A stretch of 51,017 bases of DNA from a plasmid, in the sequence record NZ_CP032820.1, one strand, 5' to 3'. Shown piece after piece: positions 8,322 through 51,017 of the stretch. Position numbers and translations under genes: made by a program. A model generated the notes under the pieces. It did not search any database. It was not told the DNA's origin and saw only the letters and a list, made by a program, of their open reading frames with translations. Numbering within the stretch: the first letter of the stretch is position 1; each line of letters starts with the position of its first letter.

Positions 8322-9040
8322 TGGAAAGAAATTGATACCGTACTTTTCGGAGTTGCGGCATTGATGGGTAAACATGGCATGATGAAATGATACCGAATTA
8401 TCATTCCTGGCACACCCTGCAGAACGACCTTTTGATACCAAATACAAAAGCAGCCGGAAGCCGGACGCAAAAAATTGATACCATAAAACATTAGGGAAAA
8501 AGAACAGGAACAAAATACAATATTATATATATAAATAATATACGAATATATAATATATAAACAAATAATATATAATATATGATTAATATACTCCACTTCC
8601 AGAAAAAGCAACACGAAGAATCTTCTTTTCCCTAAAGTTCTTTGTGTCGTTTCTCTCTATATCTGAATACAGAAAAACGGCTGCATCATAAAAGAAAAGA
8701 CACCGACACCATTCAGGAACTACCGCCCATCGGCAAAAGGATTGCATCTAATTGATACCTTTTCTGCCTGCACTGGAGAGAAACCGGGAAGGTATTTGAT
8801 ACCGTACTTTTCCGGGTTCTGCCCGGCATGGACGATAAGAGAACATTATTATGATACCAAAAACCTTAGGGAAAAATAAAACCTCGGCAGTCTATAAACC
8901 TAAAACCATTTTTAACAAAAATAATTGTCCTATTATTTGCGACATTTATAGAAAATCACTATCTTTGAGTATTGAAAATAAAGAGATAAACAAACCTTTA
9001 AAGCTGGTTTGGCTGCCAGTATAAAGAACAGCAAACAAAA
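8322..9040. repeat. Composite intergenic repeat, copy 1: type B (8322-8510), AT-rich linker, type A (8626-8874), type C promoter module (8878-9040)
   Basis: Near-identical to the reverse-orientation copies at 25660-26160 and 30893-31630. Contains 7 TTGATACC/TGATACC boxes. Type A is bounded by TTTTCCCTAAAGTT/AACCTTAGGGAAAA. Confidence 0.9.
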
Positions 9041-9042
9041 TT

Positions 9043-9312
9043 ATGAATATCTTAAGATTTCTTTTAAGTAGCCTTTTATGGGCTATTGGTGGGGTTCTTG
9101 TATTAGCAATCTATGCGTATAGTGAACTAGTCTATTTGATTTTTATTTGCATTGCAATACTAGGATTAACCATCTACTACAGAAAATCCATAATAAAAAT
9201 GTACGCAGAAATCTTTAATGAGCTAGGAATCAATAAGTATGTTATACAAATTAAAAATCTAAAGAAATACAAAGAACCTATTTACAAACTAATCAATACA
9301 ATAGGTCTATGA
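9043..9312 (+). CDS. Small two-TM membrane protein
   Basis: 89-aa hydrophobic ORF whose ATG is the conserved 3' end of repeat type C (CAGCAAACAAAATTATG). Confidence 0.5.
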   Translation: MNILRFLLSSLLWAIGGVLVLAIYAYSELVYLIFICIAILGLTIYYRKSIIKMYAEIFNELGINKYVIQIKNLKKYKEPIYKLINTIGL

Positions 9313-9383: not shown

Positions 9384-9833
9384 ATGGAAACTAATCAAAC
9401 ATATCAAAATGAACTTGGTTCGGCTATGCTCCCATTTGTTATGAGAGAATTGGTTGATACAGTCATGAAAAGAAAAACGCTACCTTTAGAAGATGCGTTA
9501 TACTATATATATTCTTCCAATTTGTACAAGGCATTATTGGACGAGAATACAAAACTATGGTATTCAAGTACATTATCACTTTATGAAGCATTAGAAAAAG
9601 AGAAAACAGAACAGAAGAAAGTACAAAAGGACAATCCAAAGATATTGCTTTTTCAAATGTTTTGTGCTGAAAATTACAGGGAAACTAAAAATATAAGTGC
9701 TAAAGAAACTCTTTTGCTGTTTTCCAATCATGGCGTTTTTGAATTTCTATATGAAAATTTTGAAATGCTGCACACACAAGATACAGAGTATATATTAGAT
9801 ACTATAATAACTTATATCAATAAAAAGGCATGA
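9384..9833 (+). CDS. DUF3791-domain protein
   Basis: N-terminal LGSAMLPFVMRE... pattern and size typical of DUF3791. Overlaps the next gene by 4 bp. Confidence 0.6.
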   Translation: METNQTYQNELGSAMLPFVMRELVDTVMKRKTLPLEDALYYIYSSNLYKALLDENTKLWYSSTLSLYEALEKEKTEQKKVQKDNPKILLFQMFCAENYRETKNISAKETLLLFSNHGVFEFLYENFEMLHTQDTEYILDTIITYINKKA

Positions 9834-10309
9834 AACTATATCACGGCTCAACAGTTACCGTCAAATCCCCTAATATACAGAAAGGGCGTAAAGCTACTGA
9901 CTTTGGAAAAGGATTCTATACGACAACTAATTTTGAACAGGCTAAGAAGTGGGCAATACTCAAAAGAAATCGGGAACATGGTAAAAAAGCGGTCGTTTCA
10001 GTTTATGAAGTCCCCGATAATATTCTTGATAGAGAGTTTTCAGTCCTTCGATTTGATGGGGCTACAAAAGAGTGGCTGGAGTTTGTAGTTAATAACCGCA
10101 GAGGAAAAGGAAAAAACAGCTATGATTTAATAATGGGACCCGTTGCCAATGACCAGTTATATGCAACAATCCGGCTTTATGAACAAGGTGTTGTTACGGC
10201 TGATGCAGCAATTGAAATGCTAAAGACCCATAAGCTTTTTAACCAACTTTCATTTCATACAGTGAAAGTTATTCCATTATTAAAATTCACAGAATCTATT
10301 GAAGTATAA
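9830..10309 (+). CDS. DUF3990-domain protein (LYHGS motif)
   Basis: MKLYHGS...DFGKGFYTT signature of DUF3990, the conserved partner of DUF3791. Confidence 0.6.
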   Translation: MKLYHGSTVTVKSPNIQKGRKATDFGKGFYTTTNFEQAKKWAILKRNREHGKKAVVSVYEVPDNILDREFSVLRFDGATKEWLEFVVNNRRGKGKNSYDLIMGPVANDQLYATIRLYEQGVVTADAAIEMLKTHKLFNQLSFHTVKVIPLLKFTESIEV

Positions 10310-10330
10310 ATCATAAAACTATAATGAACC

Positions 10331-10591
10331 ATGAATAAAGAAATGAGCTTGGATGTTGCGCTCGACATTATCGGGACACTCCGCATGATGAAGATAGATG
10401 AAATATCAGAAGAGAAGGATGAAAACAGAAAAAAAATACTGCAAAAAGAACTTTCTGTTCTCAACACAGAAGAAAAAATAGCAAATGGATTGTTGCAGTT
10501 TGAAGTTTCTGAAAATGTGCGCTTATCAGTCATGGATAAGATACAAAACTATTACGCACCTAAATTGAAAGCATATTATGCAACGCTATGA
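10331..10591 (+). CDS. Small acidic protein, candidate epsilon-like antitoxin
   Basis: 86 aa. Overlaps the zeta-toxin gene start by 14 bp, suggesting translational coupling. Confidence 0.4.
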   Translation: MNKEMSLDVALDIIGTLRMMKIDEISEEKDENRKKILQKELSVLNTEEKIANGLLQFEVSENVRLSVMDKIQNYYAPKLKAYYATL

Positions 10592-11444
10592 AGTAGAAGC
10601 CATCTTTGAACAAAAAAAAGATGGCTTATTTGAGGACATCAATATATCATCACAAAAGCCTATTGCTATAATCTTAGGTGGACAACCAGCTTGCGGAAAA
10701 AGCACTCTTATAAATGTTGCAAAGAAAGACCATCCTAACTTAGATTTTCTCACTGTTAATGGTGACCTTTACAGACAGTTTCACCCCAATAAGGAACTAA
10801 TAAAAGACCCTATTAAATACCCCATTGAAACCCAGATTTTTTCTAGCGTTTTTACAGAAAAACTAATAGAAGAAGCCATTAAACGGAAATGCAATATTAT
10901 TATAGAAGGAACTATGAGAAATCCAGATGTACCTTTAAAGACAGCACAAAAATTTAAAGATGCAGGATTTAGAGTTGAAGCATATATTATTGCAGCCCCC
11001 AAGGAGTTTACCCAACTAGGACTTTACAACAGGTATCAAGAAGAAGTACTAAGTAAAGGACAAGGACGATTAGCCGATATTGATTCACATAACAAAGCCG
11101 TAAATGGACTAATGAAATCTGCAAATCAATTATACAGTGATAAGGCTGTAGATAAGATTTCTATCCACACCTACTTAGCGAAAGAAAGAATTAAAGATTT
11201 CAATCTAGTAAATGGTGAATGGAGTTGCAAAAGTATGCCATCTATTTTTATAGATGAAAGTCGTTCAAAACAGATGAAGAATAAAGAAATACTTAACACT
11301 AACATTCAAAGAGGAAAAGAGCTTATTGAATCCGTAACGAATCCTGAAGTAAAAAAAGGAATGAAAGAAGCTCTGTCACAACTTCAATCTTCACTAGAAA
11401 AAGTTCAAAGACAAGAAAAAGGATTAAAAAAAGGTTTCTTCTGA
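10578..11444 (+). CDS. Zeta-toxin family P-loop kinase
   Basis: Walker A GGQPACGKST near the N-terminus, about 288 aa. Architecture matches PezT/zeta. Confidence 0.7.
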   Translation: MQRYEVEAIFEQKKDGLFEDINISSQKPIAIILGGQPACGKSTLINVAKKDHPNLDFLTVNGDLYRQFHPNKELIKDPIKYPIETQIFSSVFTEKLIEEAIKRKCNIIIEGTMRNPDVPLKTAQKFKDAGFRVEAYIIAAPKEFTQLGLYNRYQEEVLSKGQGRLADIDSHNKAVNGLMKSANQLYSDKAVDKISIHTYLAKERIKDFNLVNGEWSCKSMPSIFIDESRSKQMKNKEILNTNIQRGKELIESVTNPEVKKGMKEALSQLQSSLEKVQRQEKGLKKGFF

Positions 11445-15591: not shown

Positions 15592-16091
15592 ATGATGGAA
15601 CAAACATAGCTTCTGATGATATTATATTAAAGCCTAAATTCCGATATTGGTTAATGAAGAATTTCCTTTTAATCACATTAGCGATTTTCGTGTTCATTTT
15701 TAGTAAATATATAAGAGAACATGAATTATTAAAATTTATCAGTGGAACGATATTAGTATTGTTGATATTTATAATTTTCTACAGATATATTTCAATGTTA
15801 CTTTGTACAAAATGGATTATAACTAGAGAGCAAATAAAAATATATCAAGGAGTACTTTCAAAAAGGATTAACTACATAGAATTATATCGGGTATATGATT
15901 ACGAAGAAAAGCAAAGTTTTATCCAGTCTTTAATAAACAACACCAATATCTACATTTATTCTGGCGATAAATCAACACCAGAACTACTGATGAATGGTCT
16001 TAAAGCTAATAGTGATATAATTCAAACTATCAGAAATAGAGTAGAAGAACAAAAAAAGAAAAAAGGAATATATGAATTTACAAACAGATAA
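15588..16091 (+). CDS. Bacterial PH-domain (YdbS/YdbT-like) membrane protein
   Basis: Two N-terminal TM helices followed by a bPH_2-like region. Confidence 0.5.
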   Translation: MNDGTNIASDDIILKPKFRYWLMKNFLLITLAIFVFIFSKYIREHELLKFISGTILVLLIFIIFYRYISMLLCTKWIITREQIKIYQGVLSKRINYIELYRVYDYEEKQSFIQSLINNTNIYIYSGDKSTPELLMNGLKANSDIIQTIRNRVEEQKKKKGIYEFTNR

Positions 16092-16779
16092 TGATATGAA
16101 AAGAGTGCTTTTATTTTTTTCCCTAATGTTACTGTTGGGCAACATAAAAGGACTAGCACAATCTATTGTCATTGACCCGGCAATGATTGGAACATTGGTT
16201 TATTCCCATCAGGCGCAACAAGGTGTACTGAAAGATATACAAAGTGAGGAAACAAAAATCCGTAACTTTCAAATTTTAATTCAACAAAAAATGAGTCAAA
16301 TTCAATCCTTACAGGAAAAGACATACAACTATCTTTCTACAGTTAATGCAGTTGTGAAAAATGGAAAGGATATTATTTATGCTTCAACCTTAGCTAGAGA
16401 CATAGCTAAGTATCAATCCGAAGCAGCTAAATATGCAGTTGGAGACCCCAAATTATTAACCATAATTGCAAAAACAGAGTATGAACTTATCAGTCGAAGT
16501 GTAGATTTAATGATATACATAAATAATATAGCATTGCAAGGCGGTGAAAAAAATCTTATGGATAATAAGCAAAGGATAGATTTATGTATTCATGTGGTCA
16601 ATGAACTTAGACGAATGCGAGGACTTGCATACGCTGTATGCCGACAAATGAAATCCGCTAAAAGGGCTGGAGTACTAAAAACTCTTGTACCCGGACAATT
16701 TAAATATGTAAATAGTGGGAAACAAAAAGTAGATAATATTTTAAACGGCATTAAATGGATTAGTAAAGGAGGATATTAA
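16072..16779 (+). CDS. Secreted TraH/TraI-family-like protein; paralogue of 37929..38603
   Basis: Signal peptide. C-terminal block MDNKQRIDL..VNELRRMRGLAYAVCRQMKSAKRAGVLKTLVPGQFKY is nearly identical to the tra-operon gene at 37929. Confidence 0.5.
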   Translation: MNLQTDNDMKRVLLFFSLMLLLGNIKGLAQSIVIDPAMIGTLVYSHQAQQGVLKDIQSEETKIRNFQILIQQKMSQIQSLQEKTYNYLSTVNAVVKNGKDIIYASTLARDIAKYQSEAAKYAVGDPKLLTIIAKTEYELISRSVDLMIYINNIALQGGEKNLMDNKQRIDLCIHVVNELRRMRGLAYAVCRQMKSAKRAGVLKTLVPGQFKYVNSGKQKVDNILNGIKWISKGGY

Positions 16780-18973: not shown

Positions 18974-19085
18974 AATTGATACCTTTTCTGCCTGCACTGG
19001 AGAGAAACCGGGAAGGTATTTGATACCGTACTTTTCCGGGTTCTGCCCGGCATGGACGATAAGAGAACATTATTATGATACCAAA
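18962..19085. repeat. Partial type A repeat (TTGATACC boxes), forward orientation
   Basis: About 115 bp identical to the core of type A: TTGATACCTTTTCTGCCTGCACTGGAGAGAAACCGGGAAGGTATTTGATACCGTACTTTTCCGGGTTCTGCCCGG. Confidence 0.85.
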
Positions 19086-19375: not shown

Positions 19376-21331
19376 ATGGAAGAAAGCAAAGAATTACAAA
19401 AACTATATGGATTCATGCAAGCATTCATTTATATAACTGTTTGCATAGAGATTCTACTATTTGTTCATTTTCCCTTTAGTGAACAAATTATGCCCTTATT
19501 ATCAAAAATGGCAAAAATTCCTATCTATTCTAATATTCTTTATAGTAAACTATTTACATTCTTTATTATAATGGTTACTTGCATTGGAACACGTTCAAAA
19601 AAGGATTTAGAATTAGACCCGACTAAACAAATCATTTTTCCTTTAATCTTTGGATTCATAATGTTCTTTGGAAGTATATGCTTTCTTTTCTTTAAAGAAA
19701 AAGGAGAAACTAGTTTAGAATGGTATAATATAGCTTACATTATACTATCAATAATTGGAGCGACATTAATAAATTCAGCTCTAGATAACATTTCCAAACG
19801 TATTAAATCAAACTTTATGAAAGATAGATTTAATATAGAGAATGAAAGCTTTGAACAATCTAAAGACAAGGTAGAAACAGAATTCTCTGTCAATATTCCG
19901 ATGAAGTTTTTCTACAATAGAAAGTGGCATAATGGGTGGCTGAATATATGCAACTGTTTTCGTGGAACTTTCGTAATAGGAACGCCTGGAAGTGGTAAAT
20001 CTTTTTCTGTTATAAATTCTTTTATAAGACAACATTCAGCTAAAGGATTTGCAGAAGTTGTTTACGACTTCAAATTTCCTGAACTTGCCAAAATTGCATA
20101 TTATAATTATCAAAAGAACAAGCAATTAGGAAAAATACCAAGTAATTTCAAGTTCAATGTCATTAATTTTTCTGATATTGAATATAGTAGAAGAATAAAC
20201 CCATTGAAACGAGAATATATAGAAATCCTAGCAGATGCAACAGAAACGGCAGAAGCATTATATGAGAGTTTACAAAAAGGCGACAAAGGAAGTGGAGGTA
20301 ATAGCGATTTTTTTAAAACATCAGCAGTAAACTTGTTAGCAGCTTCTATTTATTTTTGGTCTAGATACGAGAATGGCAAATATTCAGATTTACCGCATGT
20401 ACTGGCTTTCCTTAATCAAGAATATGACGTACTTTTTAAAGTCCTCTTTTCCGAACCTGAATTAAAATCACTAGTTTCCCCATTTGAAGCTGCATATAAA
20501 TCAGGAGCAGTGGACCAATTAGAAGGACAGATGGCAAGTCTAAAAGTACAGTTATCAAGACTAGCAACTAAAGAATCTTTTTGGGTATTTAGTGGCAATG
20601 ATTTCAATTTAAAAGTATCAGATAAAAAAGACCCTAGTTATCTTATCATTGCAAATAACCCTAAAACACAAAGCATGAATAGTGCTTTAAATGCACTTAT
20701 CATTAACCGATTAACTAGACTTGTCAATACAAAAGGTAACTACCCTACTTCAATCATAGTAGATGAATGTCCCACATTATATTTTTATCAACTTGCAACA
20801 CTACTTTCTACTGCACGTAGCAATAAGGTTTCAATTTGTTTGGGATTACAGGAACTACCGCAATTAGAAGAACAATACGGCAAAGCTACCGCAAAAACTA
20901 TAACTTCTATTATAGGTAACACTTTATCCGGGCAAGCTAAAGCTCCTGAAACTTTAGATTGGCTACAAAAACTATTTGGAAAAGTTAAGCAAGTAAAAGA
21001 AGGTGTTACTATCAGAAGAAACGAAACAACAATTAATATGAATGAACAAATGGATTTTGTTATCCCGGCATCCAAAATATCTTCATTACAAGCTGGTACA
21101 TTAGTAGGGCAAGTTGCATTAGATTTTGGACAAGAAGATAATTTTCCAACAGCGATGTACCATTGCAAAACCAATTTAGATTTAAAAAAAATTAAGAAAG
21201 AAGAAGAAGCCTACAAAGAACTGCCAAAAGTATATAACTTTGGGACAGCAGATAATAGAGAGAAATTACTGCAAAAAAACTTTAAGAGAATATACGACGA
21301 AGTAGAAACAGTAATAGAACAATATGTATAA
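19376..21331 (+). CDS. Type IV coupling protein (VirD4/TraG/TraD family; Bacteroides MobC-type)
   Basis: N-terminal TM helices, Walker A GTPGSGKS, Walker B IIVDECP. 651 aa. Confidence 0.8.
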   Translation: MEESKELQKLYGFMQAFIYITVCIEILLFVHFPFSEQIMPLLSKMAKIPIYSNILYSKLFTFFIIMVTCIGTRSKKDLELDPTKQIIFPLIFGFIMFFGSICFLFFKEKGETSLEWYNIAYIILSIIGATLINSALDNISKRIKSNFMKDRFNIENESFEQSKDKVETEFSVNIPMKFFYNRKWHNGWLNICNCFRGTFVIGTPGSGKSFSVINSFIRQHSAKGFAEVVYDFKFPELAKIAYYNYQKNKQLGKIPSNFKFNVINFSDIEYSRRINPLKREYIEILADATETAEALYESLQKGDKGSGGNSDFFKTSAVNLLAASIYFWSRYENGKYSDLPHVLAFLNQEYDVLFKVLFSEPELKSLVSPFEAAYKSGAVDQLEGQMASLKVQLSRLATKESFWVFSGNDFNLKVSDKKDPSYLIIANNPKTQSMNSALNALIINRLTRLVNTKGNYPTSIIVDECPTLYFYQLATLLSTARSNKVSICLGLQELPQLEEQYGKATAKTITSIIGNTLSGQAKAPETLDWLQKLFGKVKQVKEGVTIRRNETTINMNEQMDFVIPASKISSLQAGTLVGQVALDFGQEDNFPTAMYHCKTNLDLKKIKKEEEAYKELPKVYNFGTADNREKLLQKNFKRIYDEVETVIEQYV

Positions 21332-21710
21332 CATTACATTACCAATTTTAGGCACAAGGTTAAAGCAAATCCGAGAGCATATAGGATATTCCCAAGCTCA
21401 ATTAGCAGAACAGCTGAACTGTAAACAAAATGCGATTTCAAATCTTGAACTAGGAAAAGGGGGCAGCCTAAAACTTTTATTTCAAGTGCTGAATTTTTAT
21501 TCTAACTATGTTTTTATAGATTTAATATTTAGTGAAAAGTTTTATCTGATTTCTAATACAGAAGAAGATGAAGCACAAAAAGCCAATTATAATTCTGTTA
21601 TAATAGAAATTATAAGACAATCAGAAAAAAACTATGAGGATGCTATGTCAAACGCTAAAAAAGAGCTAGAAGCTAATCTTCAAAAAGCCATCAATTTATT
21701 ACAGCCTTAA
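21324..21710 (+). CDS. XRE-family HTH transcriptional regulator
   Basis: HTH_XRE pattern LKQIREHIGYSQAQLAEQLNCKQNAISNLELGK. Overlaps the coupling-protein stop. Confidence 0.6.
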   Translation: MYNITLPILGTRLKQIREHIGYSQAQLAEQLNCKQNAISNLELGKGGSLKLLFQVLNFYSNYVFIDLIFSEKFYLISNTEEDEAQKANYNSVIIEIIRQSEKNYEDAMSNAKKELEANLQKAINLLQP

Positions 21711-21761: not shown

Positions 21762-21940
21762 AAGAATTTGTTGATACCGTACTTTTCGGAGTTCCGGCAC
21801 TGATGGGCAAACATGGCATGATGAAATGATACCGAATTATCATTCCTGGCACACCCTGCAGAACGACCTTTTGATACCAAATACAAAAAGCAGCCGGAAG
21901 CCGGACGCAAAAAATTGATACCATAAAACAAAAAAAGAAA
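21762..21940. repeat. Type B repeat, solitary copy
   Basis: Near-identical to 8322-8510. Four TTGATACC/TGATACC boxes. Sits between convergent genes. Confidence 0.85.
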
Positions 21941-24820: not shown

Positions 24821-25069
24821 TTTTCCCTAAAGTTTTTGGTATCATAATAATGTTCTCTTATCGTCCATGCCGGGCAGAACCCGGAAAAGTACGGTATCAA
24901 ATACCTTCCCGGTTTCTCTCCAGTGCAGGCAGAAAAGGTATCAATTAGATGCAATCCTTTTGCTGATGGGCGATAGTTCCTGAATGGTGTCGGTGTCTTT
25001 TCTTTTATGATGCAGCCGTTTTCCTGTATTCAGGTATAGAGAGAAACGACACAAGGAACTTTAGGGAAA
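24821..25069. repeat. Type A repeat, solitary MITE-like copy with perfect 14-bp TIRs
   Basis: TTTTCCCTAAAGTT at 24821-24834 and AACTTTAGGGAAAA at 25056-25069. The interior is identical to other type A copies and carries three GGTATCA(A) boxes. Confidence 0.85.
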
Positions 25070-25494: not shown

Positions 25495-25660
25495 TACTAA
25501 ATAATATATGCCCCCAAGTTGCGAGGGGGCTAAACTCCTGATTTATCAGGCAAGATTTGGTTTTTGTGTCCACAAAAACACATCTTGCTATTAATTTCTA
25601 CAAACGCAAATATATAAATTACTAAACACCCTCCCAAACAAAAGGGAAAAAAATACAATT
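25495..25660. promoter_or_regulatory. Candidate oriT/promoter region upstream of the mobA-mobB operon
   Basis: Two hairpins: GCCCCC-aagttgcga-GGGGGC, and GCAAGATTTGGTTTTTGTG...CACAAAAACACATCTTGC (imperfect IR). Confidence 0.4.
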
Positions 25661-26160
25661 AGATAAGTTTTTTTGGTATCATAATAATGTTCTCTTATCG
25701 TCCATGCCGGGCAGAACCCGGAAAAGTACGGTATCAAATACCTTCCCGGTTTCTCTCCAGTGCAGGCAGAAAAGGTATCAATTAGATGCAATCCTTTTGC
25801 TGATGGGCGATAGTTCCTGAATGGTGTCGGTATCGTTTCTTTTATGATGCAGCCGTTTTTCTGTATTCAGATATAGAGAGAAACGACACAAAGAACTTTA
25901 GGGAAAAGAAGATTCTTCGTGTTGCTTTTTCTGGAAGTGGAGTATATTAATCATATATTATATGTTTATAGGTTCATATATTATATATTATATATTCATA
26001 TATTATTTATATATAGTGTTTTCTCTTTGTTCTTTTTCCCTATAGTTTTATGGTATCAATTTTTTGTGTCCGGCTTCCGGCAGCTTTTTGTATTTGGTAT
26101 CAAAAAGGCGTTCTTCAGAACATATCGAGCATGATAATTCGGTATCAATTTCTTTCCCTA
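25660..26160. repeat. Composite repeat copy 2, reverse orientation: type A (25672-25907), linker, type B (26030-26160)
   Basis: Near-identical to the other copies. Nine GGTATCA(A) boxes. Confidence 0.9.
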
Positions 26161-26165
26161 CAGTA

Positions 26166-26590
26166 TATCAAAAAAGCATAGGGACAAAAACCCAACTTTT
26201 TAAAATATGTTTTTTTTAGATAGGGACAAAAACCCAACTTTCGATTGATTAGTTGTATCATATAGTGTCTTTTTTTGTTAATAGGTGTTCTTTTCCCTAA
26301 AGTTTGTGTTAAGATTATGAGAAAAGTTCCTTTTTTATGGGTTTATGTAATAAGAAAAGTTCCTTTTTTGTGTTTGGTATGATTATCAGGTTTTTTTTTA
26401 TCAGCTAGTGATGGTAGTACCCTTAAAAATGAAAGGGTAACTATCTGAAAAACAACAGATAATGGTAAAAAATCAGGGACAAAAACCCAACTTCTTAGGG
26501 ACAAAAACCCAACTTCTTAGGGACAAAAACCCAACTTCTTAGGGACAAAAACCCAACTTTTAGCCCCCTCCTAGGGACAAAAACCCAACT
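26166..26590. repeat. Iteron region (putative oriV): about 7 copies of GGGACAAAAACCCAACTT, including 4 tandem 22-bp units at 26474-26561
   Basis: Tandem AGGGACAAAAACCCAACTTCTT x4 and dispersed copies at about 26179, 26231 and 26572. Also GAAAAGTTCCTTTTTT x2 and the hairpin TACCCTTaaaaatgaaAGGGTA. Confidence 0.75.
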
Positions 26591-26591
26591 T

Positions 26592-27749
26592 TTATTCATC
26601 TTCTTTTTCTTCTCCAATCATTCCGGGGAGTATTTCTACTTCTTTTAATAATACGGATAAACAATATTCTGCTTTATTTGAAATTTTATTCCAGTTATCT
26701 CTAACATATTCGCCTAGATAAAGCATCTTAGTTACTACTGCTTTATAGTTGCTTAATGTAATCTGTGGAATAAACTGCTGCAAATGCTCGTCCTTCATTG
26801 CAAAGTGCAAAGAACAAAAATTCGTTATCATCTTCTTTTGTCCTTTTAATAGTTCTTCTTCCTTCTTTGATAATGCAGACTTAATAACTTTGAAATTAAG
26901 TTTATAAGGCTGTGTATCGCCTGAATTACGATAAACTTCTGCCATTTCAAACCAGCAATCAGCCTGTTCAAACAAATCATCGTAAACAGGGCGTATTACA
27001 CGTTTATACAAATCTTTAAATTCGGGGTATTTATCTTCTAATTTTAAGAATTTCCGAAATCTATCCACATAGATAGAAAAACCACCTTTTTCTTTCCATG
27101 AGCTAATCAGCATATACATTCTTATTGTATATCTACTTTGCGCTCTTAAAGCTATCTCTTTTATATAGCGTGTAAAACCTCTATCAACATTAATGAAAAC
27201 TTTAGCAACCTCTCTATCCATTTCTAAAGAAAAACCTCTTGAATAAGGAGTTTTAGGTATATTTGCCTTAGTGAATAAACCAGTAATAGACCAACTATCC
27301 TCACCTGTTATTGGGTCTTTAACATCAAGCTCTACAGGAATACTGATTAATTTACGAACCATGCTTTTTACTTCCTTGTATTGGTCTGGATTAACGCCCA
27401 AATCCCGATATGCGATATCTACTCTTATACGGTCTGAATATTCTTGAAATAAAGATAATTGCTCGCATGGAATAGATGTACCATATTTATCTAGATGCTG
27501 AATACTTAATTCTATGACATCCTGTAATTTCTCTATAACAGCAATTAAGATTCTAATCTGTACTGTCTTAAAATCACCAGCCATTAATGTAACTACATTA
27601 GGTTGTTTCAGCCATGTGGGATTTTCTGGGAGTTTCACAGGAAGATTTGTACGAGGATGCCCTTTCCTAATTCTAACAATCTCACCGTCTATTTCTTCTT
27701 TTTCTTCTTTCACCGCACGTTTTCGGGCTTTTATTTCTCTATTTACCAT
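26592..27749 (-). CDS. Plasmid replication initiator protein (Rep), iteron-associated
   Basis: 385-aa basic protein directly abutting the iteron array. Resembles Bacteroidales plasmid RepA-type initiators. Confidence 0.6.
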   Translation of the reverse strand: MVNREIKARKRAVKEEKEEIDGEIVRIRKGHPRTNLPVKLPENPTWLKQPNVVTLMAGDFKTVQIRILIAVIEKLQDVIELSIQHLDKYGTSIPCEQLSLFQEYSDRIRVDIAYRDLGVNPDQYKEVKSMVRKLISIPVELDVKDPITGEDSWSITGLFTKANIPKTPYSRGFSLEMDREVAKVFINVDRGFTRYIKEIALRAQSRYTIRMYMLISSWKEKGGFSIYVDRFRKFLKLEDKYPEFKDLYKRVIRPVYDDLFEQADCWFEMAEVYRNSGDTQPYKLNFKVIKSALSKKEEELLKGQKKMITNFCSLHFAMKDEHLQQFIPQITLSNYKAVVTKMLYLGEYVRDNWNKISNKAEYCLSVLLKEVEILPGMIGEEKEDE

Positions 27750-30544: not shown

Positions 30545-30579
30545 AAATTAATCCTTTCACATTTCTAATAATTGACTAT

Positions 30580-30842
30580 CAATCTGTAGTTTTCTTCAAT
30601 GCTTCAAAAGAAGACAAGTAATCATCAACAGCTTTATTTAACGCTGCATATTTATCTTTCCACGTCCTTATTTGCCGTTGTGTTTCAATATACCTATCAT
30701 TCAAAGTTGCATAATTCTGAATAGCAAATCTAATAGCTTTAGCATCTGTTTTTTCACCAGATAATTTTTTTAGATTTTCTAACTCTGCGCAGGCTGCATC
30801 GTCTAAGCGTAATGTAAACTCTTTTTCATAAAAAAATGATTA
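30580..30842 (-). pseudogene. RHH (CopG/MobC-N-like) protein gene, apparently frameshifted in an A5 run just after its ATG
   Basis: An 80-codon open frame (FTLRLDDAACAELENLKKLSGEKTDAKAIRFAIQNY...) lacks an ATG. ATGAAAAAGAG one frame over reads MKKSLHYA-stop. One extra A would give MKKEFTLRLDD.... Confidence 0.4.
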
Positions 30843-30892
30843 ATGAATTAATACTGAAAAATAGCACTAACAGTTGGCTACGAAATGGATTT

Positions 30893-31630
30893 AAGAAGCA
30901 ATGTTTCATGATTTTGTTTGCTGTTCTTTATACTGGCAGCCAAACCAGCTTTAAAGGTTTGTTTATCTCTTTATTTTCAATACTCAAAGATAGTGATTTT
31001 CTATAAATGTCGCAAATAATAGGACAATTATTTTTGTTAAAAATGGTTTTAGGTTTATAGACTGCCGAGGTTTTATTTTTCCCTAAGGTTTTTGGTATCA
31101 TAATAATGTTCTCTTATCGTCCATGCCGGGCAGAACCCGGAAAAGTACGGTATCAAATACCTTCCCGGTTTCTCTCCAGTGCAGGCAGAAAAGGTATCAA
31201 TTAGATGCAATCCTTTTGCCGATGGGCGGTAGTTCCTGAATGGTGTCGGTGTCTTTTCTTTTATGATGCAGCCGTTTTCCTGTATTCAAGTATAGAGAGA
31301 AACGACACAAGGAACTTTAGGGAAAAGAAGATTTTTCGTGTTGCTCTTTCTGGAAGTGGAGTATATTAATCATATATTATATGTTTATAGGTTCATATAT
31401 TATATATTCATATATTATTTATATATAGTGTTTTCTCTTTGTTCTTTTTCCCTATAGTTTTATGGTATCAATTTTTTGTGTCCGGCTTCCGGCAGCTTTT
31501 TGTATTTGGTATCAAAAGGTCGTTCTACAGGGTGTGCCAGGAATGATAATTCGGTATCATTTCATCATGCCATGTTTACCCATCAATGCCGCAACTCCGA
31601 AAAGTACGGTATGAATTTCTTTCCCTATAG
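30893..31630. repeat. Composite repeat copy 3, reverse orientation: type C (30893-31075), type A (31076-31326), linker, type B (31445-31630)
   Basis: Near-identical to copies 1 and 2. The type C ATG here is followed by only a 27-codon ORF, so it is a decayed copy. Confidence 0.9.
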
Positions 31631-31879
31631 TTCTTATTGGGTTAGACAACAAGACGCATTAAAATGTATTCTCAAAGTGAGAATGTATTTTAATTTGCGT
31701 CATGTTTCCGCTTCTGCAATGCTTACTAAAGTGGAGTTACCTAAAAGGTAGTGGAACTTTACTAAGGATTGCAGAAGGGATAAAGAAACATACCTTAGAA
31801 GGGTGGGTGGGTTTACCGATAGCAAAACTATTGGAGCGTAACAAAGTGAAGCGATTAAGCCTTTTTGGTTCTTTTTTGG

Positions 31880-31917
31880 CGTTTGAAAAAAGAACTCCCC
31901 CCAATGAGGGGGGAAGG
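31880..31917 (-). terminator. Intrinsic terminator downstream of the ArdC-like gene
   Basis: On the minus strand, CCCCCCTCATTGGGGGG followed by AGTTCTTTTTT. Confidence 0.6.
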
Positions 31918-31922
31918 AATCT

Positions 31923-32933
31923 TTAAGCAACCTTTGTATTTTTCTCTTCTTCAACTTCTCCCACATCTAGCCTTATATTTAGATGCTGGGCTATGAATTT
32001 ACTACCTTTAATAGCATCTGCCAATACAGTAAATAAAAATTTAGGTTCTTCTTTTATTGCTTTGCACCATGATTTTAAATAAGCCGCATTTTCTTCTCTG
32101 ACGGTTACAGAAATACCCAAATATACACCAGACAAAGCCGATATTAATTCTGCTACAAGTTCTTCACGCCCATAATTGAATTTATCATTTTCATAAAATC
32201 CTTTTCGATTTAGTCTATTTTTAACACCTGTACTATGTCCCATTTCATGTAATTCTGTACCATAAAAACTTTCTCCGTCCTTAAATTGGCTCTTTAAAGG
32301 TAAAGTAATGCTATCATTTGATATTGAATAAAACGCACTATCACTAGAAACCGTTTGAATAGGACATACCCAATTTTGATTCTTATTCATTTCATCAAGT
32401 ATTGGATTTACATACATTTCTTTCTCTTCTTGTGGCTGTTCCTCTCCTGAAAATTTAGCCTTTAATATATCCCATCTATTGGGATATTTTTCCGCAAAGT
32501 TTGTTTGGTCTAAATTAAAAACTTGGAAATATTTTGTATAAGCTGCTAAACGGTATTCTTTTTGTTCTTCTTCTGATAATTTGTTATATTCATCATATGA
32601 AATTTTTTCATTTGTCTGACGATGATAAGCACAAAATAATGTGTAATAAACAGGAAAAGCAACAGCACCTTTTAGAACATTAATACCTTCGTTTCGTGCT
32701 TGATTGAATGTCAAAAAAACAGGAGTTTGATAATTATATTTTTCACACAAAAAATAAAGTAAAAAAGCGTTTCCACCACTATAAGTACGACCTGTTAAAT
32801 TTTGTGGTAAAAAGTTCTGTTTAGAGTTGACTTTAGAGAACCAAGGTTTTTGCCAATTCATAGACAAGCTTTCAATTTTTTCAACCATAAGGTTTACAAA
32901 CTTCTCTGCATTTTTATCAAAAGTAGATTTCAT
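31923..32933 (-). CDS. ArdC-like antirestriction protein (ssDNA-binding N-domain plus zincin-like HExxH metalloprotease domain)
   Basis: 336 aa with HEMGH at the C-terminal domain. The N-terminal region resembles the DUF1738/ArdC ssDNA-binding domain. Confidence 0.65.
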   Translation of the reverse strand: MKSTFDKNAEKFVNLMVEKIESLSMNWQKPWFSKVNSKQNFLPQNLTGRTYSGGNAFLLYFLCEKYNYQTPVFLTFNQARNEGINVLKGAVAFPVYYTLFCAYHRQTNEKISYDEYNKLSEEEQKEYRLAAYTKYFQVFNLDQTNFAEKYPNRWDILKAKFSGEEQPQEEKEMYVNPILDEMNKNQNWVCPIQTVSSDSAFYSISNDSITLPLKSQFKDGESFYGTELHEMGHSTGVKNRLNRKGFYENDKFNYGREELVAELISALSGVYLGISVTVREENAAYLKSWCKAIKEEPKFLFTVLADAIKGSKFIAQHLNIRLDVGEVEEEKNTKVA

Positions 32934-33115
32934 AATTTTGTTTGCTGTTCTTTATACTGGCAGCCAAACCAGCTTTAAAAGTTTATTTATCTCTTTATTT
33001 TCAATACTCAAAGATAGTAATTTTCTATAAATGTCGCAAATAATAAGACAATTATTTTTGTTAAAAATAGTTTATAATTGGCTGATTTTTAAGGTATTAT
33101 CTTTTCCCTAAAGTT
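32928..33115. repeat. Type C promoter/5'-UTR module, solitary copy driving the ArdC-like gene
   Basis: About 150 bp near-identical to 8878-9040 (RC) and 30893-31075. Ends in TTTTCCCTAAAGTT at 33102-33115. Confidence 0.85.
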
Positions 33116-33356
33116 TTATATATTTTGGGTGAGAGATAAGGTTTTATAAACGGAATATTCCCTTTGGGAACATGAAGTCTATAAAACCGAATATCCAATG
33201 CCTTGCTTTTGTAGGTGCTTCATAGAAGCGGTGAAAAAAGCAAAGCATTGGATATACCTTAGAAGGGTGGGTGGGAAAATGCGTTAGGGATTACAGCGGA
33301 AAGCCCACAGCGTAGCGAGGACTTGCAGCGAAAAGCCCGACCTGAAAGGTAACGCC

Positions 33357-33965
33357 CTATTTATTTCTTCTATTCATCAATCTTACTTTTTCATAACGTA
33401 AATACCTATACAAAGTAGCCTTACTTCCAATGTGTAAAATTCTACATATTTCATCTATAGAATAATCCCGATTTTCATATAAACGCTTTGCTGCTATAGC
33501 TTTTCTCTTTGCATCTTCCGATAACCCTATAGGTCGTCCCGTAAGTTTCCCTCGTTCTTTTGCAGCTTGTAATCCAGCCCTAGTTCGTTCTACTATTATT
33601 TCACGTTCATATTCAGCCAATGAAGCAAAAATTCCAAATTGACATCTTCCTAAAGCACTATTAGTATCAATACCATCAACTATGCTTTTGAATGCAATTT
33701 TTCTTTTCTGCAAACAATCAACTATATAAACTAAATCTTTCAAAGAACGTCCTAATCTATCTAGCTTCCAGATAACAAAAGTATCACCTTCTCGCAAATA
33801 TGCAAGGGCTTTATCTAATTCGGGTCTATCCTTTACTCCTGATACTTTTTCCTCAAATATAAGTTTGCATCCGGCTTCTTTTAAAGCATCTAGCTGCAAA
33901 TCTAAATTCTGTTCCCTCGTTGAAACACGAGCGTAGCCTATTATCTCCATTTTATTTAAATCCAA
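33357..33965 (-). CDS. Serine recombinase (resolvase/invertase family)
   Basis: GYARVSTREQ catalytic-serine motif at the N-terminus and a C-terminal HTH. About 200 aa. Confidence 0.85.
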   Translation of the reverse strand: MDLNKMEIIGYARVSTREQNLDLQLDALKEAGCKLIFEEKVSGVKDRPELDKALAYLREGDTFVIWKLDRLGRSLKDLVYIVDCLQKRKIAFKSIVDGIDTNSALGRCQFGIFASLAEYEREIIVERTRAGLQAAKERGKLTGRPIGLSEDAKRKAIAAKRLYENRDYSIDEICRILHIGSKATLYRYLRYEKVRLMNRRNK

Positions 33966-37928: not shown

Positions 37929-38603
37929 ATGAAGAAAATCCTATTTATTTTAGTGGTAGCATCTACTTTAACCCAAGTTGCATATTCGCAAAAGGCAGTC
38001 TTGGATATAACCTGTATGGAAACACTTATAGCTAATCATAAGGTGCAACATACTTCTTTCTCTAAAGTGAAAGAGAATGAAGCTCAAATAAGCCTTATAC
38101 AAAAACAAATCAGTGAAAAAATGGTTCAGATTGAATTTTTCCAAAGCAAATTTTATAATAGCCTAAAATCTGTAGAAGCCATCATAAAAACAGGAAAAGA
38201 TATTATCTACTGTACAGATATTGCAGCAGATATTGGTAAATATCAAAAACAAATGGTTGAACTTGCTGTAGGTGACCCGGCTTTATTATTGGTGTCAGCA
38301 AAAACAGAGCTAGAATTAGTTAATCGCACTGCGGATTTGACACAATACATTTATCAGGTCGCTATTGTCGGGACAGATGTAAACCTTATGGATAATAAGC
38401 AAAGAATAGACTTGCTTAAGTATGTTATTAATGAACTAAGAAACATGAGAGGTATAGCATACGCTGTATGCCGACAGATGAAAACAGCAAAAAGAAATGG
38501 AGTATTACAAACATTAGCTCCGGGGGTATTTAAATACAAAGATAATCGTTCAAAATTAGTTGATGATTTATTACAGAATTATAAAGTAAAACCTAAAAGA
38601 TAA
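37929..38603 (+). CDS. TraH/TraI-family secreted protein (paralogue of 16072..16779)
   Basis: Signal peptide. Conserved C-terminal block shared with 16072..16779. Confidence 0.5.
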   Translation: MKKILFILVVASTLTQVAYSQKAVLDITCMETLIANHKVQHTSFSKVKENEAQISLIQKQISEKMVQIEFFQSKFYNSLKSVEAIIKTGKDIIYCTDIAADIGKYQKQMVELAVGDPALLLVSAKTELELVNRTADLTQYIYQVAIVGTDVNLMDNKQRIDLLKYVINELRNMRGIAYAVCRQMKTAKRNGVLQTLAPGVFKYKDNRSKLVDDLLQNYKVKPKR

Positions 38604-38604
38604 T

Positions 38605-39261
38605 ATGAAAAGAGTGCTTTTATTTTTTTCCCTAATGTTGATTATTGGAACTTCTAATATCTATTCCCAAATGCCAGTAAAGGATAAAGGGAAATGGAGT
38701 GTACTTAATAATATGGAATTTATGGATAGAGTACGACTACAACCAGAATGGTATCATTACTGGATATGGTATAAAAAGGTTTTGGGTATTAAAATTCCTT
38801 TGCCGGGCTTAGGGTTACACGACAAATACGGGAAGGAAGATAGACGTAATTTCCAGTTACAAGAAATTCCCATGATGGCAGCCGTAGAGTACAATAAATC
38901 AGAAACAGAAAAAGAAGGGTATAATGTTGATACCATATATAGACAGGAGCTCTTCAAATTTGGAGATAAAGAAATTGATTATCAATATACTTTAACTAAA
39001 AATCGCAGAAATGATATTCTTAATGATATAAATAAAAAACTTGTCGAATATTCTTCTAATGGCGGTAATAAAGAACACGTTGAAGTTATAACTGATGAAG
39101 TTACTAGAATAAAAAAGAACATTGATATAATCCATGATTCACATATGAGTAACTCTAAAAAGAGAGAAGCTTATTTAGATTTTGATAAAGAATTAATAGA
39201 GGTTCTTTCGCTAATAACAAAATTGAATAATATAAATAAAACAATAATGAACCATGAATGA
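38605..39261 (+). CDS. TraI-like secreted protein
   Basis: Signal peptide, 218 aa. Located between the TraH-like and TraJ-like genes. Confidence 0.45.
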   Translation: MKRVLLFFSLMLIIGTSNIYSQMPVKDKGKWSVLNNMEFMDRVRLQPEWYHYWIWYKKVLGIKIPLPGLGLHDKYGKEDRRNFQLQEIPMMAAVEYNKSETEKEGYNVDTIYRQELFKFGDKEIDYQYTLTKNRRNDILNDINKKLVEYSSNGGNKEHVEVITDEVTRIKKNIDIIHDSHMSNSKKREAYLDFDKELIEVLSLITKLNNINKTIMNHE

Positions 39262-49653: not shown

Positions 49654-51017
49654 AAATTAAAGTGTGTCAAGTAAGGTAAAAAATAATAACTTTAGACACA
49701 CTTTTTTATTATGAGCGAAAGATTTGATTACGAACAGTTCAAGGCGAACGCCATAGAACAATTGAAGGCGGGAGTACCACTATCCGGCAAGGACGGAGTA
49801 TTGGCACCGCTGTTGGAGAATCTGCTTAACAGCGCGCTGGAAGGAGAGATGGACAGCCATCTGGAAGGAGTAGAACGGGAGTACGGGAATCGGCGCAACG
49901 GGCACATGAGCAAGCAGGTCCAGACCTCGATGGGCGAAATAACGATCAACACGCCGCGGGACAGGGACGGGACATTCGACCCGCAGGTTGTCCGGAAGAG
50001 GGAGAAGATACTGGCGGACTCATTGGCGGACAGGATAATAGGGCTGTATGCCATCGGGAACAGCACGAGGGAGATAAGCGACATACTGGAGGAGCAGTTC
50101 GGGAACAGGATATCGGCGGAGACGATCAGCAGCATCACGGACAGGGTGCTGCCGGAGATCCAGGCATGGAAGAGCCGGGCGCTGGAAAGCGTCTATCCCA
50201 TAGTATGGCTTGATGCGGTGCATTATAAGGTGATGGACGAGAAGAACCGTCCTGTGACCAGAGCCATATATAATGTTCTGGCAATCAATTCGGAAGGCCG
50301 CAAGGAATTGCTCGGGATGTACATATCCAAGAGCGAGGGTGCGAACTTCTGGCTGGGTGTCCTGACCGACCTCCAGAGCAGAGGAGTCCGGGACATCCTC
50401 ATAGCGTGCGTTGACGGGCTGAAGGGTTTCCCGGATGCGATAGCGAGCGTCTTTCCCGAGACCACGGTGCAGTTGTGTATAGTCCACCAGATACGCAACT
50501 CGATAAAGTATGTGGCCAGCAAGCGGCAGAAGGAGTTCATGAAGGATCTGAAGCAGGTCTACCAGGCGGTGAACAAGGATGCGGCGGAACAGGCTCTGGA
50601 TGAGCTGGAACTGAAGTGGGGCGAGGACTATCCGATAGTCATCAAGAGCTGGCGTGACAACTGGGAAAGGCTCAGCGCGTACTTCCAATACTCCGAACAC
50701 ATACGGCGCATAATATACACCACCAACACCGTGGAGGGCTACCACCGCCAGTTGCGTAAGGTCACCAAGAACAAGGGGGTCTTTCCGAACGACACAGCCC
50801 TCGAAAAACTTGTGTTTATGGCATTTACAAGAATCAGACGCAAGTGGACGCAGCCTGTCCAGAACTGGGGTCAGACTGCCCAGCAACTGGCCATCCTGTT
50901 CCCGGACAGGTTCAGGATACTGTCCTGAAAAAACACTATTATTTGGAGTTCTTTGATAGGTTTGATAAATTAGCGGTTGGAGTAGGCGGCCATGGCCGCC
51001 TACTCCGACACAACAAA
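49654..51017 (+). mobile_element. IS256-family IS copy B, truncated by the window end; left IR core TGTGTCAAGT at 49664-49673
   Basis: 49711-51017 is identical to 1-1307. The transposase CDS is at 49711..50928. Confidence 0.7.
49711..50928 (+). CDS. IS256-family transposase, copy B
   Basis: Identical to 1..1218. Confidence 0.85.
   Translation: MSERFDYEQFKANAIEQLKAGVPLSGKDGVLAPLLENLLNSALEGEMDSHLEGVEREYGNRRNGHMSKQVQTSMGEITINTPRDRDGTFDPQVVRKREKILADSLADRIIGLYAIGNSTREISDILEEQFGNRISAETISSITDRVLPEIQAWKSRALESVYPIVWLDAVHYKVMDEKNRPVTRAIYNVLAINSEGRKELLGMYISKSEGANFWLGVLTDLQSRGVRDILIACVDGLKGFPDAIASVFPETTVQLCIVHQIRNSIKYVASKRQKEFMKDLKQVYQAVNKDAAEQALDELELKWGEDYPIVIKSWRDNWERLSAYFQYSEHIRRIIYTTNTVEGYHRQLRKVTKNKGVFPNDTALEKLVFMAFTRIRRKWTQPVQNWGQTAQQLAILFPDRFRILS

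Follow-up and report, generated by a model that had tools for sequence, protein, structure and literature searches.

A repeated module with a predicted Bacteroides promoter and leader precedes ardC, a regulator-like gene and a zeta-toxin block in a pBF9343-family plasmid

The plasmid and the three copies of module C

The subject of this analysis is module C, a sequence with a core of about 140 bp that occurs three times in the plasmid record NZ_CP032820.1 (the whole stretch of 51,017 nucleotides, called the window below) and that ends each time at the start codon of a different gene. The window consists of a 49,710-bp circle plus an exact terminal redundancy of 1,307 bp (1-1307 = 49711-51017 by self-BLAST), and the record is thus an uncircularised assembly of the 49,710-bp plasmid circle. 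The plasmid is a conjugative member of the pBF9343 family of Bacteroides and Phocaeicola with clear synteny with pBF9343, the FDAARGOS_763 plasmid unnamed1 and others, and 30 complete records in the PLSDB database match the module C region at 97-99%. Around copies 2 and 3 the genes, all on the minus strand, follow the order serine recombinase, ardC, small-gene array, rep, mobC and relaxase. The copies of the module are:

8862-9047, plus strand: copy 1, from the junction motif to ATG+5; core 8908-9047
30905-31090, minus strand: copy 2, from ATG+5 to the junction motif (31078-31090); core 30905-31044
32929-33115, minus strand: copy 3, from ATG+5 to the junction motif (33103-33115); core 32929-33068

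A repeat search and self-BLAST aligned 8903-9047/9052 (reverse) with 30904/5-31049 and 32925/8-33073 at 96-97% identity; the three copies exist, and chance is excluded. Over the core of ~140 bp, copy 1 is 99% identical to copy 2 and 97% identical to copy 3, and when copies 1 and 2 are counted from the ATG the identity is 99.3% over -146..-1. These two copies are embedded in a 727-bp inverted repeat (8323-9047 versus 30905-31624, 95.7% identical). Copy 3 has 4-5 differences from copies 1 and 2 in its last ~133 nt, and further upstream the identity is ~56%, with the exception of the motif AAC(C/T)TTAGGGAAAA. All three copies terminate in CAGCAAACAAAAT(T/C)ATG, and the similarity is lost within ~5 nt past the ATG. 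A preliminary description of the window had reported a near-identical repeat at three sites, each ending at the ATG of a different gene, and had read it as a promoter, 5' untranslated region and start codon reused before different genes. The repeat is borne out at 96-99% identity, and the reading is supported by the perfect -33/-7 promoter that lies in every copy. The three sites had been placed correctly, but the ends given for them (8878, 30893, 31075 and 33100) were off by 5-30 nt, and the junction motif that had been noticed at the other end of the module is present at 8862-8874 (minus), 31078-31090 (plus) and 33103-33115 (plus).

The genes behind the three copies and their immediate neighbors are:

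31923-32933, minus strand: ardC-like gene behind copy 3, with Pfam matches to ArdcN and a zincin metallopeptidase domain (E = 2e-30 and 2e-28)
31895-31916, minus strand: intrinsic terminator after ardC, CTTCCCCCCTCATTGGGGGGAG followed by a T-run
30826-30909, minus strand: 27-codon leader open reading frame (ORF) starting at the copy 2 ATG, its TGA overlapping the next ATG (ATGA)
30578-30829, minus strand: 83-amino-acid ribbon-helix-helix (RHH)-like gene (MKKEFTLRLDD...), heading the small-gene array that leads to rep
26592-27749, minus strand: rep, adjoining 22-bp iterons
9043-9312, plus strand: gene behind copy 1, encoding an 89-amino-acid protein with two hydrophobic segments and no Pfam match, first of its block
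9384-11444: DUF3791/DUF3990/zeta-toxin maintenance block, headed by the gene at 9043
33357-33965, minus strand: serine recombinase (resolvase family), 420 bp from copy 3

The gene at 32933 had already been called ArdC-like, a label with which the Pfam domains agree and which is carried by the annotation in 30 plasmids. A module copy precedes ardC in all three complete plasmids compared, and the three module C places are found in almost every member of the pBF9343 family. The gene served by the third copy varies, being the 89-amino-acid protein gene here and a JAB-domain gene or other small ORFs in relatives. A fourth copy, placed ahead of new cargo, is present in one relative, and across the relatives the genes behind module C belong to at least seven different families.

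Module C copies that are only 65-75% identical are carried by pBFY46 and pBACSA01 (Phocaeicola salanitronis), two distant plasmids. A scan of metagenomes with a 22-base pattern recovered 89 full copies, 37 of them distinct, which are mostly near-identical and of the pBF9343 type, and it gained a single new lineage, L224, the fourth in our comparison. Taken together, the copies of the three diverged lineages are 65-80% identical. Scanning genome contigs with TTTGCGAC-N16-TATNTTTG (15 specified bases) was unspecific, with real copies at 2 of 120 loci, and pMMCAT was set aside as a different, larger plasmid. In pBFY46 the block ardC - RHH - rep - mobC - relaxase - parA is flipped relative to the tra and type IV coupling protein genes when compared with the pBF9343 family and pBACSA01.

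Predicted promoter, conserved upstream element and leader

The elements recognized within the copies, with the predicted transcription start sites (TSS), are:

8936-8967, plus strand: copy 1 promoter; -33 TTTG at 8936-8939, -7 TATCTTTG at 8960-8967, predicted TSS ~8971
30985-31016, minus strand: copy 2 promoter; -33 TTTG at 31013-31016, -7 TATCTTTG at 30985-30992, predicted TSS ~30981
33009-33040, minus strand: copy 3 promoter; -33 TTTG at 33037-33040, -7 TATCTTTG at 33009-33016, predicted TSS ~33005
8926-8944, plus strand: imperfect palindrome TGTC-N11-GACA overlapping the -33 box, candidate operator of copy 1
31008-31026, minus strand: TGTC-N11-GACA, candidate operator of copy 2
33032-33050, minus strand: TGTC-N11-GACA, candidate operator of copy 3
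9004-9019, plus strand: leader stem-loop or palindrome CTGGTTTGGCTGCCAG of copy 1, with a 5-bp stem and a 7-nt loop
30933-30948, minus strand: leader stem-loop or palindrome of copy 2
32957-32972, minus strand: leader stem-loop or palindrome of copy 3
9020-9045, plus strand: A-rich translation initiation region TATAAAGAACAGCAAACAAAATT and the ATG of copy 1, with A at -3, -6, -13 and -15

Module C is very probably a Bacteroides promoter. Each copy has a perfect match, TTTG-N20-TATCTTTG, identical in all three, to the consensus of promoters of the Bacteroides primary sigma factor, sigma-ABfr (TTTG and TAnnTTTG, 19-21 nt apart; PMC7366714), and with the -7 box centered at -7 the TTTG falls at -33/-34, in agreement with that consensus. 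The whole plasmid contains five perfect TTTG-N19-21-TAnnTTTG matches where 1.4 are expected, a number reached by none of 100 shuffles; three of the five belong to module C, and a fourth is located at 25607-25638 (minus), upstream of mobC. The TTTG, the spacing and TAT(A/C)TTT(G/A) recur in L224 and in 12 copies, 10 full and 2 with the promoter only, of pBF9343-type plasmids, pBFY46 and pBACSA01, with the exception of single-base variants in three copies that include one TTTT and, in a partial copy, one ATTG at -33. The promoter-critical positions, at which differences between the copies would speak against a common promoter, are therefore identical in the window and retained in diverged lineages. 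Compared with other sigma-ABfr promoters (PMC7366714), module C is alike in both boxes, the perfect spacing and the AT-rich spacer, and differs in its extra conserved flanks, its unusually long leader of fixed length and its occurrence as a multi-copy family in one replicon. A sigma-70 promoter scan, which is irrelevant for Bacteroides, found no excess over shuffles, and a TSS map of a pBF9343-type plasmid was not found in the literature searched. The promoter-only copies, which lack the leader, stand at the copy-1 position in pBFY46 and pBACSA01, and their conservation indicates that the promoter half is an independent unit.

The conservation extends beyond the core boxes. The GTC...CGAC columns that overlap the -33 box are invariant or nearly so in an alignment of 10 copies from 3 plasmids, and GTCnnAnnATTTGCGAC is found in every full or partial copy of the four lineages, whereas the unrelated mobC promoter lacks it; the module thus has a shared element in addition to the promoter boxes, as is found in regulons of global repressors. 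CTG-N10-CAG was considered as a LexA/SOS box and rejected, as the first sequenced Bacteroides genomes contain no LexA homologue and the LexA-like motifs of Bacteroidetes are GGA-N5-TCC and CTAA-N5-TTAG.

In all lineages the -7 box and the ATG are 72-76 nt apart, and the predicted leader of ~72 nt compares with a median leader length of 32 nt in Bacteroides (PMC7366714). The ~35 nt between the -7 box and the stem-loop vary freely among lineages, and the 3' part of the leader has the form CTG(G/C)TTT(G/T)GCTG(C/G)CAG-ATAAAnAAnAG, followed by the ATG, across lineages. The stem is paired in 12 of 12 distinct sequences (100% of cells), and one pair is exchanged between G-C and C-G with a 6:6 split. 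The last 23 leader nt are A-rich, and an A-enrichment rule is cited in PMC7366714. A search of the whole window with the Rfam covariance models gave no match at gathering thresholds.

Copies of the module are 96-99% identical within the window plasmid and 81-95% within pBACSA01, while the identity between orthologous copies of different plasmids is 65-77%, similar to the ~73% between plasmids for ardC itself. The metagenome copies vary at four sites, and the variants are combined with the three downstream genes in every possible way. Because the identity within plasmids greatly exceeds that between plasmids and the variant sites are shuffled, we conclude that the copies have been homogenised by gene conversion, which accounts for both their near-identity and the end of the homology at the coding start.

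Candidate regulators and competing explanations

The 27-codon ORF behind copy 2 had been described as decayed and placed at 30905. It is not simply decayed: the ORF starts at 30909, is conserved as an ORF in 22 related loci and has a stop codon that overlaps the start of the RHH-like gene, and a short leader ORF with coupling to the regulator-like gene behind it is the better interpretation. Orthologues of the RHH-like gene stand directly behind a module copy in four of four lineages, and the order of RHH-like gene, small genes and rep is conserved. The ATG of the module is the RHH-like gene's own start in pBFY46, pBACSA01 and L224, and the 27-codon ORF intervenes in the pBF9343 family. Comparisons of the 83-amino-acid product suggest that it is probably a ribbon-helix-helix protein: the Pfam RHH_1 match has an E value of 0.0026, below the cut-off, hhalign aligns the protein to the whole length of CopG with 57% probability, its predicted beta-strand has invariant FTLR residues, and one record bears the PGAP label 'DNA-binding protein'. 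A profile search of the PDB gave CopG matches that were non-significant (E = 0.27-0.44), and the AlphaFold model, with a pLDDT (predicted local distance difference test) score of 69 and a disordered N-terminus below 50, is too weak for use. The window's own RHH-like gene is frameshifted by an A5 tract in place of A6 just after the ATG (30820-30835). The T and A tracts of 39 related loci are T7/A6 in 35, T7/A5 in 2, T6/A6 in 1 and T6/A5 in 1; the last variant fuses the 27-codon ORF in frame to the RHH-like protein, and 109-amino-acid products are on record. The A5 tract is either a homopolymer sequencing error or a slippage-prone switch. Conservation beside a module copy is seen, in two plasmids, for an XRE-type helix-turn-helix (HTH) gene (21324-21710) as well.

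On balance we favor the interpretation that the module C copies are double-strand promoter and leader cassettes that form a regulon for plasmid establishment and maintenance under the control of a repressor. An ordinary double-strand promoter fits all three copies, and co-regulation of the three downstream genes is plausible, given the conserved sequence overlapping the -33 box and the probable DNA-binding gene that is always found behind one copy. We give even chances to a repressor shared by the three units, and the identification of this repressor with the RHH-like protein is a tentative suggestion that may well be wrong. Transcription would begin ~4 nt after TATCTTTG (at 8971, 30981 and 33005) and produce a leader of ~72 nt, and the element over the -33 box would serve as the operator of a plasmid-encoded repressor. 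The candidate of choice, the RHH-like protein, would be expressed from copy 2 and so exert negative feedback. The three units would then behave as one regulon, low in established cells and released in a burst on entry into a repressor-free recipient, and its output would comprise ardC, the leader ORF with the RHH-like gene at the head of the small-gene/rep operon, and the gene with which the zeta-toxin block begins.

The proposed repression and entry burst are suggested by an architecture that resembles known plasmid regulons, namely the ArdK, KorA and omega circuits. In pMV158 the gene for CopG, a small RHH repressor, is the first of an operon leading to the replication gene repB, and in pSM19035 the RHH protein omega represses promoters for copy number, partition and the zeta-toxin module. 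Module C resembles these systems in that an RHH-like gene heads an operon ending in rep and a sister promoter drives a zeta-toxin block; it differs in that the RHH assignment is only probable, about ten small genes precede rep and omega-like heptad repeats are absent from module C. In the IncW plasmid R388, ArdK represses PardC and four other maintenance promoters, its own included, and expression overshoots after transfer (PMC3937220). The module C units are like the ArdK/StbA circuits of R388 (PMC3937220) in the involvement of several maintenance or establishment promoters, that of ardC among them, with an R388 repressor that controls its own operon, and they would share the entry burst. The differences are that the host here belongs to the Bacteroidota, that the promoters are of the -33/-7 type and not sigma-70, that the regulator and the repression are inferred, and that the whole 140-bp promoter and leader is repeated almost identically whereas R388 repeats short operators only; sequence kinship between the two is not expected.

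Several observations weigh against this interpretation. The promoter in every copy is a motif prediction, though a strong one, and the GTC...GAC element may be an extended sigma contact instead of an operator. The RHH assignment is weak in view of the Pfam, hhalign and AlphaFold results given above, the gene is frameshifted in the window and in 2 of 39 loci, by either sequencing error or a tolerated loss, and the XRE-type HTH gene is an equally conserved candidate regulator. Support for the stem-loop is modest, with one covarying pair and an RNA structure that is indistinguishable from a DNA palindrome. Finally, gene conversion alone could explain the near-identity of the copies, with common regulation not needed.

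This last point leads to the explanation that survives best beside the repressor-controlled regulon, which is that the copies are plain constitutive promoters, strong and of the housekeeping type, with no common regulator; their near-identity and the abrupt loss of homology at the ATG would then result only from gene conversion among paralogous upstream regions. We regard it as unlikely, though worth serious consideration, as the -33 and -7 boxes are canonical, the signs of conversion described above are clear and the regulator of the preferred interpretation is a candidate only; constitutive promoters do not account for the GTC...CGAC element, the leader stem-loop and the fixed leader length, which are invariant in lineages that are otherwise ~70% identical, or for the DNA-binding-like gene that is always tied to one copy.

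An explanation centered on recombination depends on the junction motif, cTTTTCCCTAAAGTtt, which bounds every repeat module, is conserved in pBFY46, pBACSA01 and L224 and has 24 matches in the window where 4 are expected. The following list gives sites of the motif, among them those that end the three module C copies:

8487-8499, 8627-8639, 8862-8874, 24822-24834, 25057-25069, 25894-25906 and 26035-26047: junction motif
26292-26304, 31078-31090, 31313-31325, 31447-31459, 31620-31632 and 33103-33115: junction motif

The motif resembles a fusion of the two ends of the rep iteron, 3' (AACTT) before 5' (AGGGA), and since the core of that iteron, AGGGACAAAAACCCAACTT, is likewise conserved across three plasmids, the motif may be a Rep-related or a recombination site. 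Module C could accordingly be imagined as a mobile or recombination cassette, with site-specific exchange at TTTTCCCTAAAGTT carried out by the adjacent serine recombinase, or as an invertible promoter or shufflon, with the promoter secondary. The over-represented motif that bounds all module types in all lineages, the different combinations of modules, the cargo insertions flanked by duplicated modules in relatives, the relative with four copies and the resolvase-family gene 420 bp from copy 3 are consistent with such a cassette. We nevertheless find it improbable, because all 47 junctions from plasmids and metagenomes show modules A and C in one relative orientation, with no inverted isomer seen, terminal inverted repeats and target duplications are absent from module C, which has the junction motif at one end only, conservation follows the promoter and leader elements and not the ends, and homologous recombination explains duplications flanked by long repeats equally well. 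The invertible promoters of Bacteroides (PMC7641763) are likewise short promoter-bearing intergenic segments with short conserved border motifs and a nearby recombinase gene; module C differs from them by its single orientation in the 47 junctions and by having no flanking inverted repeats. The 235-bp module A, which has inverted junction motifs at its flanks, was examined as an invertible segment and rejected, the alternative orientation being found at 0 of the 47 junctions. An extension, to which we assign a slightly lower probability still, combines the regulon with a modular platform for gene exchange, in which plasmids would exchange TTTTCCCTAAAGTT-bounded units (module C, the GGTATCA arrays A and B described below and an AT-rich block), captured genes would be fused at the ATG to the regulon-controlled promoter and leader, and a master repressor would be switched by T7/A6 slippage. 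If this were true, slippage would give rise to subpopulations with de-repressed anti-restriction and maintenance genes.

We consider it very unlikely that the module acts mainly after transcription, with the promoter as incidental and the conserved ~72-nt leader with its stem-loop as the functional core, which a small RNA or an RNA-binding protein would recognize or which would act as a stabiliser or translation enhancer. The leader is longer than the Bacteroides median, its length is fixed, and the stem-loop and ATAAAnAAnAG are invariant; the leaderless promoter-only copies are conserved too, however, no Rfam match was obtained, and there is one covarying pair only. Such a role would complement the repressor-controlled promoter and does not exclude it.

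The location of the origin of transfer (oriT) bears on the remaining explanation. The mobC leader at 25500-25640 contains long inverted repeats, GCAAGATTTGGTTTTTGTGTCCACAAAAACACATCTTGC and GCCCCC...GGGGGC, downstream of the 25607-25638 (minus) promoter, and these inverted repeats are likely the oriT. By analogy with MOBP plasmids, the rep-ardC side would be the first to enter, and its genes would be directed back to oriT. The preliminary description had raised the possibility of a single-strand promoter of the Frpo or single-strand initiation (ssi) type, in which folding of the single strand restores the promoter boxes in duplex form (PMC11541004), so that a transcript or primer could be made from the transferred strand (T-strand) before the complementary strand. 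Module C shares with these elements a position upstream of early anti-defense genes, ardC being a typical early gene, and copies 2 and 3 may lie in the leading region (as judged from the oriT-like inverted repeats in the mobC leader at ~25500-25600), with their genes pointing towards the presumed oriT, an orientation that would suit transcription from the T-strand and that is the rule reported for leading-region genes (PMC11541004). Folding of the 191-nt unit as single-stranded DNA (ssDNA) was, however, no better than that of shuffles for either strand (z = 0.09 and -0.14), the promoter segment was unpaired in the centroid structure of the 423-nt intergenic region, whose strong fold (z = -4.4) is due to two long hairpins at 33140-33265 outside the module, and no complementary partners of the -33 and -7 boxes were found, so the box-rebuilding ssDNA hairpin that defines the Frpo elements (PMC11541004) is absent from module C. 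With copy 1 on the opposite strand, outside the inferred leading region and ~33 kb behind its leading end, and promoter-only partial copies at the same non-leading position in two other plasmids, this is the least probable of the explanations.

Neighboring repeats and significance of the module

Next to module C, the window contains other repeated elements. The sequence GGTATCA occurs 36 times where 4.5 occurrences are expected, nearly all of them in nine intergenic clusters (modules A and B) of 3-4 sites each with a spacing of 44, 45 or 55 bp:

8333-8482, 8753-8858, 18977-19082, 21772-21922, 24838-24943, 25675-25780, 26052-26147, 31094-31199 and 31464-31559: GGTATCA clusters

Two GGTATCA arrays flank module C copies 1 and 2. 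Spread over the plasmid, the arrays look like sites to which a single protein would bind, comparable to a centromere or to KorB sites. The B, AT-rich and A part of the 727-bp repeat is also present at 25672-26152, beside the iterons and the presumed oriT, so that this origin-like sequence is found three times in the plasmid, and no inversion isomer at the 727-bp inverted repeat was seen among the complete relatives examined. Two relatives (L244, 8057-10758; L245, 23691-26031) have accessory genes inserted in or between modules, with module A, B or C duplicated on both sides; the inserts of relatives of this type are an ATP-binding protein gene and a small ORF with an HTH gene.

The element at 33116-33330, adjacent to copy 3, has two long hairpins and, after them, ACCTTAGAAGGGTGGGTGGG and ACAGCGGAAAGCCC-like repeats (ssDNA z = -4.4). 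It is 92% identical to pBACSA01 although the adjoining module C is only 72% identical, its 3' part is also found in p5482-type plasmids, and a second unit with different hairpins and the same 20-mer is located at 31641-31812. As a possible ssi site, small RNA or terminator/insulator, this element is more promising than module C. Elsewhere in the window, two genes have a common 40-nt start region, ATGAAAAGAGTGCTTTTATTTTTTTCCCTAATGTT, which resembles a signal peptide, at 16091-16130 and 38600-38639, close to a stretch that is 72% identical between 16551-16743 and 38381-38573. The matches to the junction motif inside the ATGAAAAGAGTGCTTTTATTTTTTTCCCTAATGTT gene starts are probably unrelated to the intergenic motif.

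No description of the module C repeats was found in the literature searched, which did not cover the original pBF9343 paper, and the proposed regulon is apparently undescribed in plasmids of the Bacteroidota, while the type of system is well known from other plasmid groups. Because families of promoters with a shared operator are well known in IncP, IncW and Inc18 plasmids, the biology is expected rather than surprising, and the more exotic single-strand promoter reading is removed, as nothing supports it. Plasmids of the pBF9343 type are common in human gut Bacteroides and Phocaeicola, as seen in the 30 complete PLSDB records and many metagenome contigs. The analysis pins down a shared promoter and leader for an anti-restriction gene, a probable regulator-replication operon and a toxin-bearing maintenance block. 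Module C is also a compact natural expression cassette of 140 bp (promoter, leader and start context) for engineering in Bacteroides. With three predicted TSS, one candidate operator and two candidate repressors, the results provide a map of what may be an establishment circuit of Bacteroidota plasmids.

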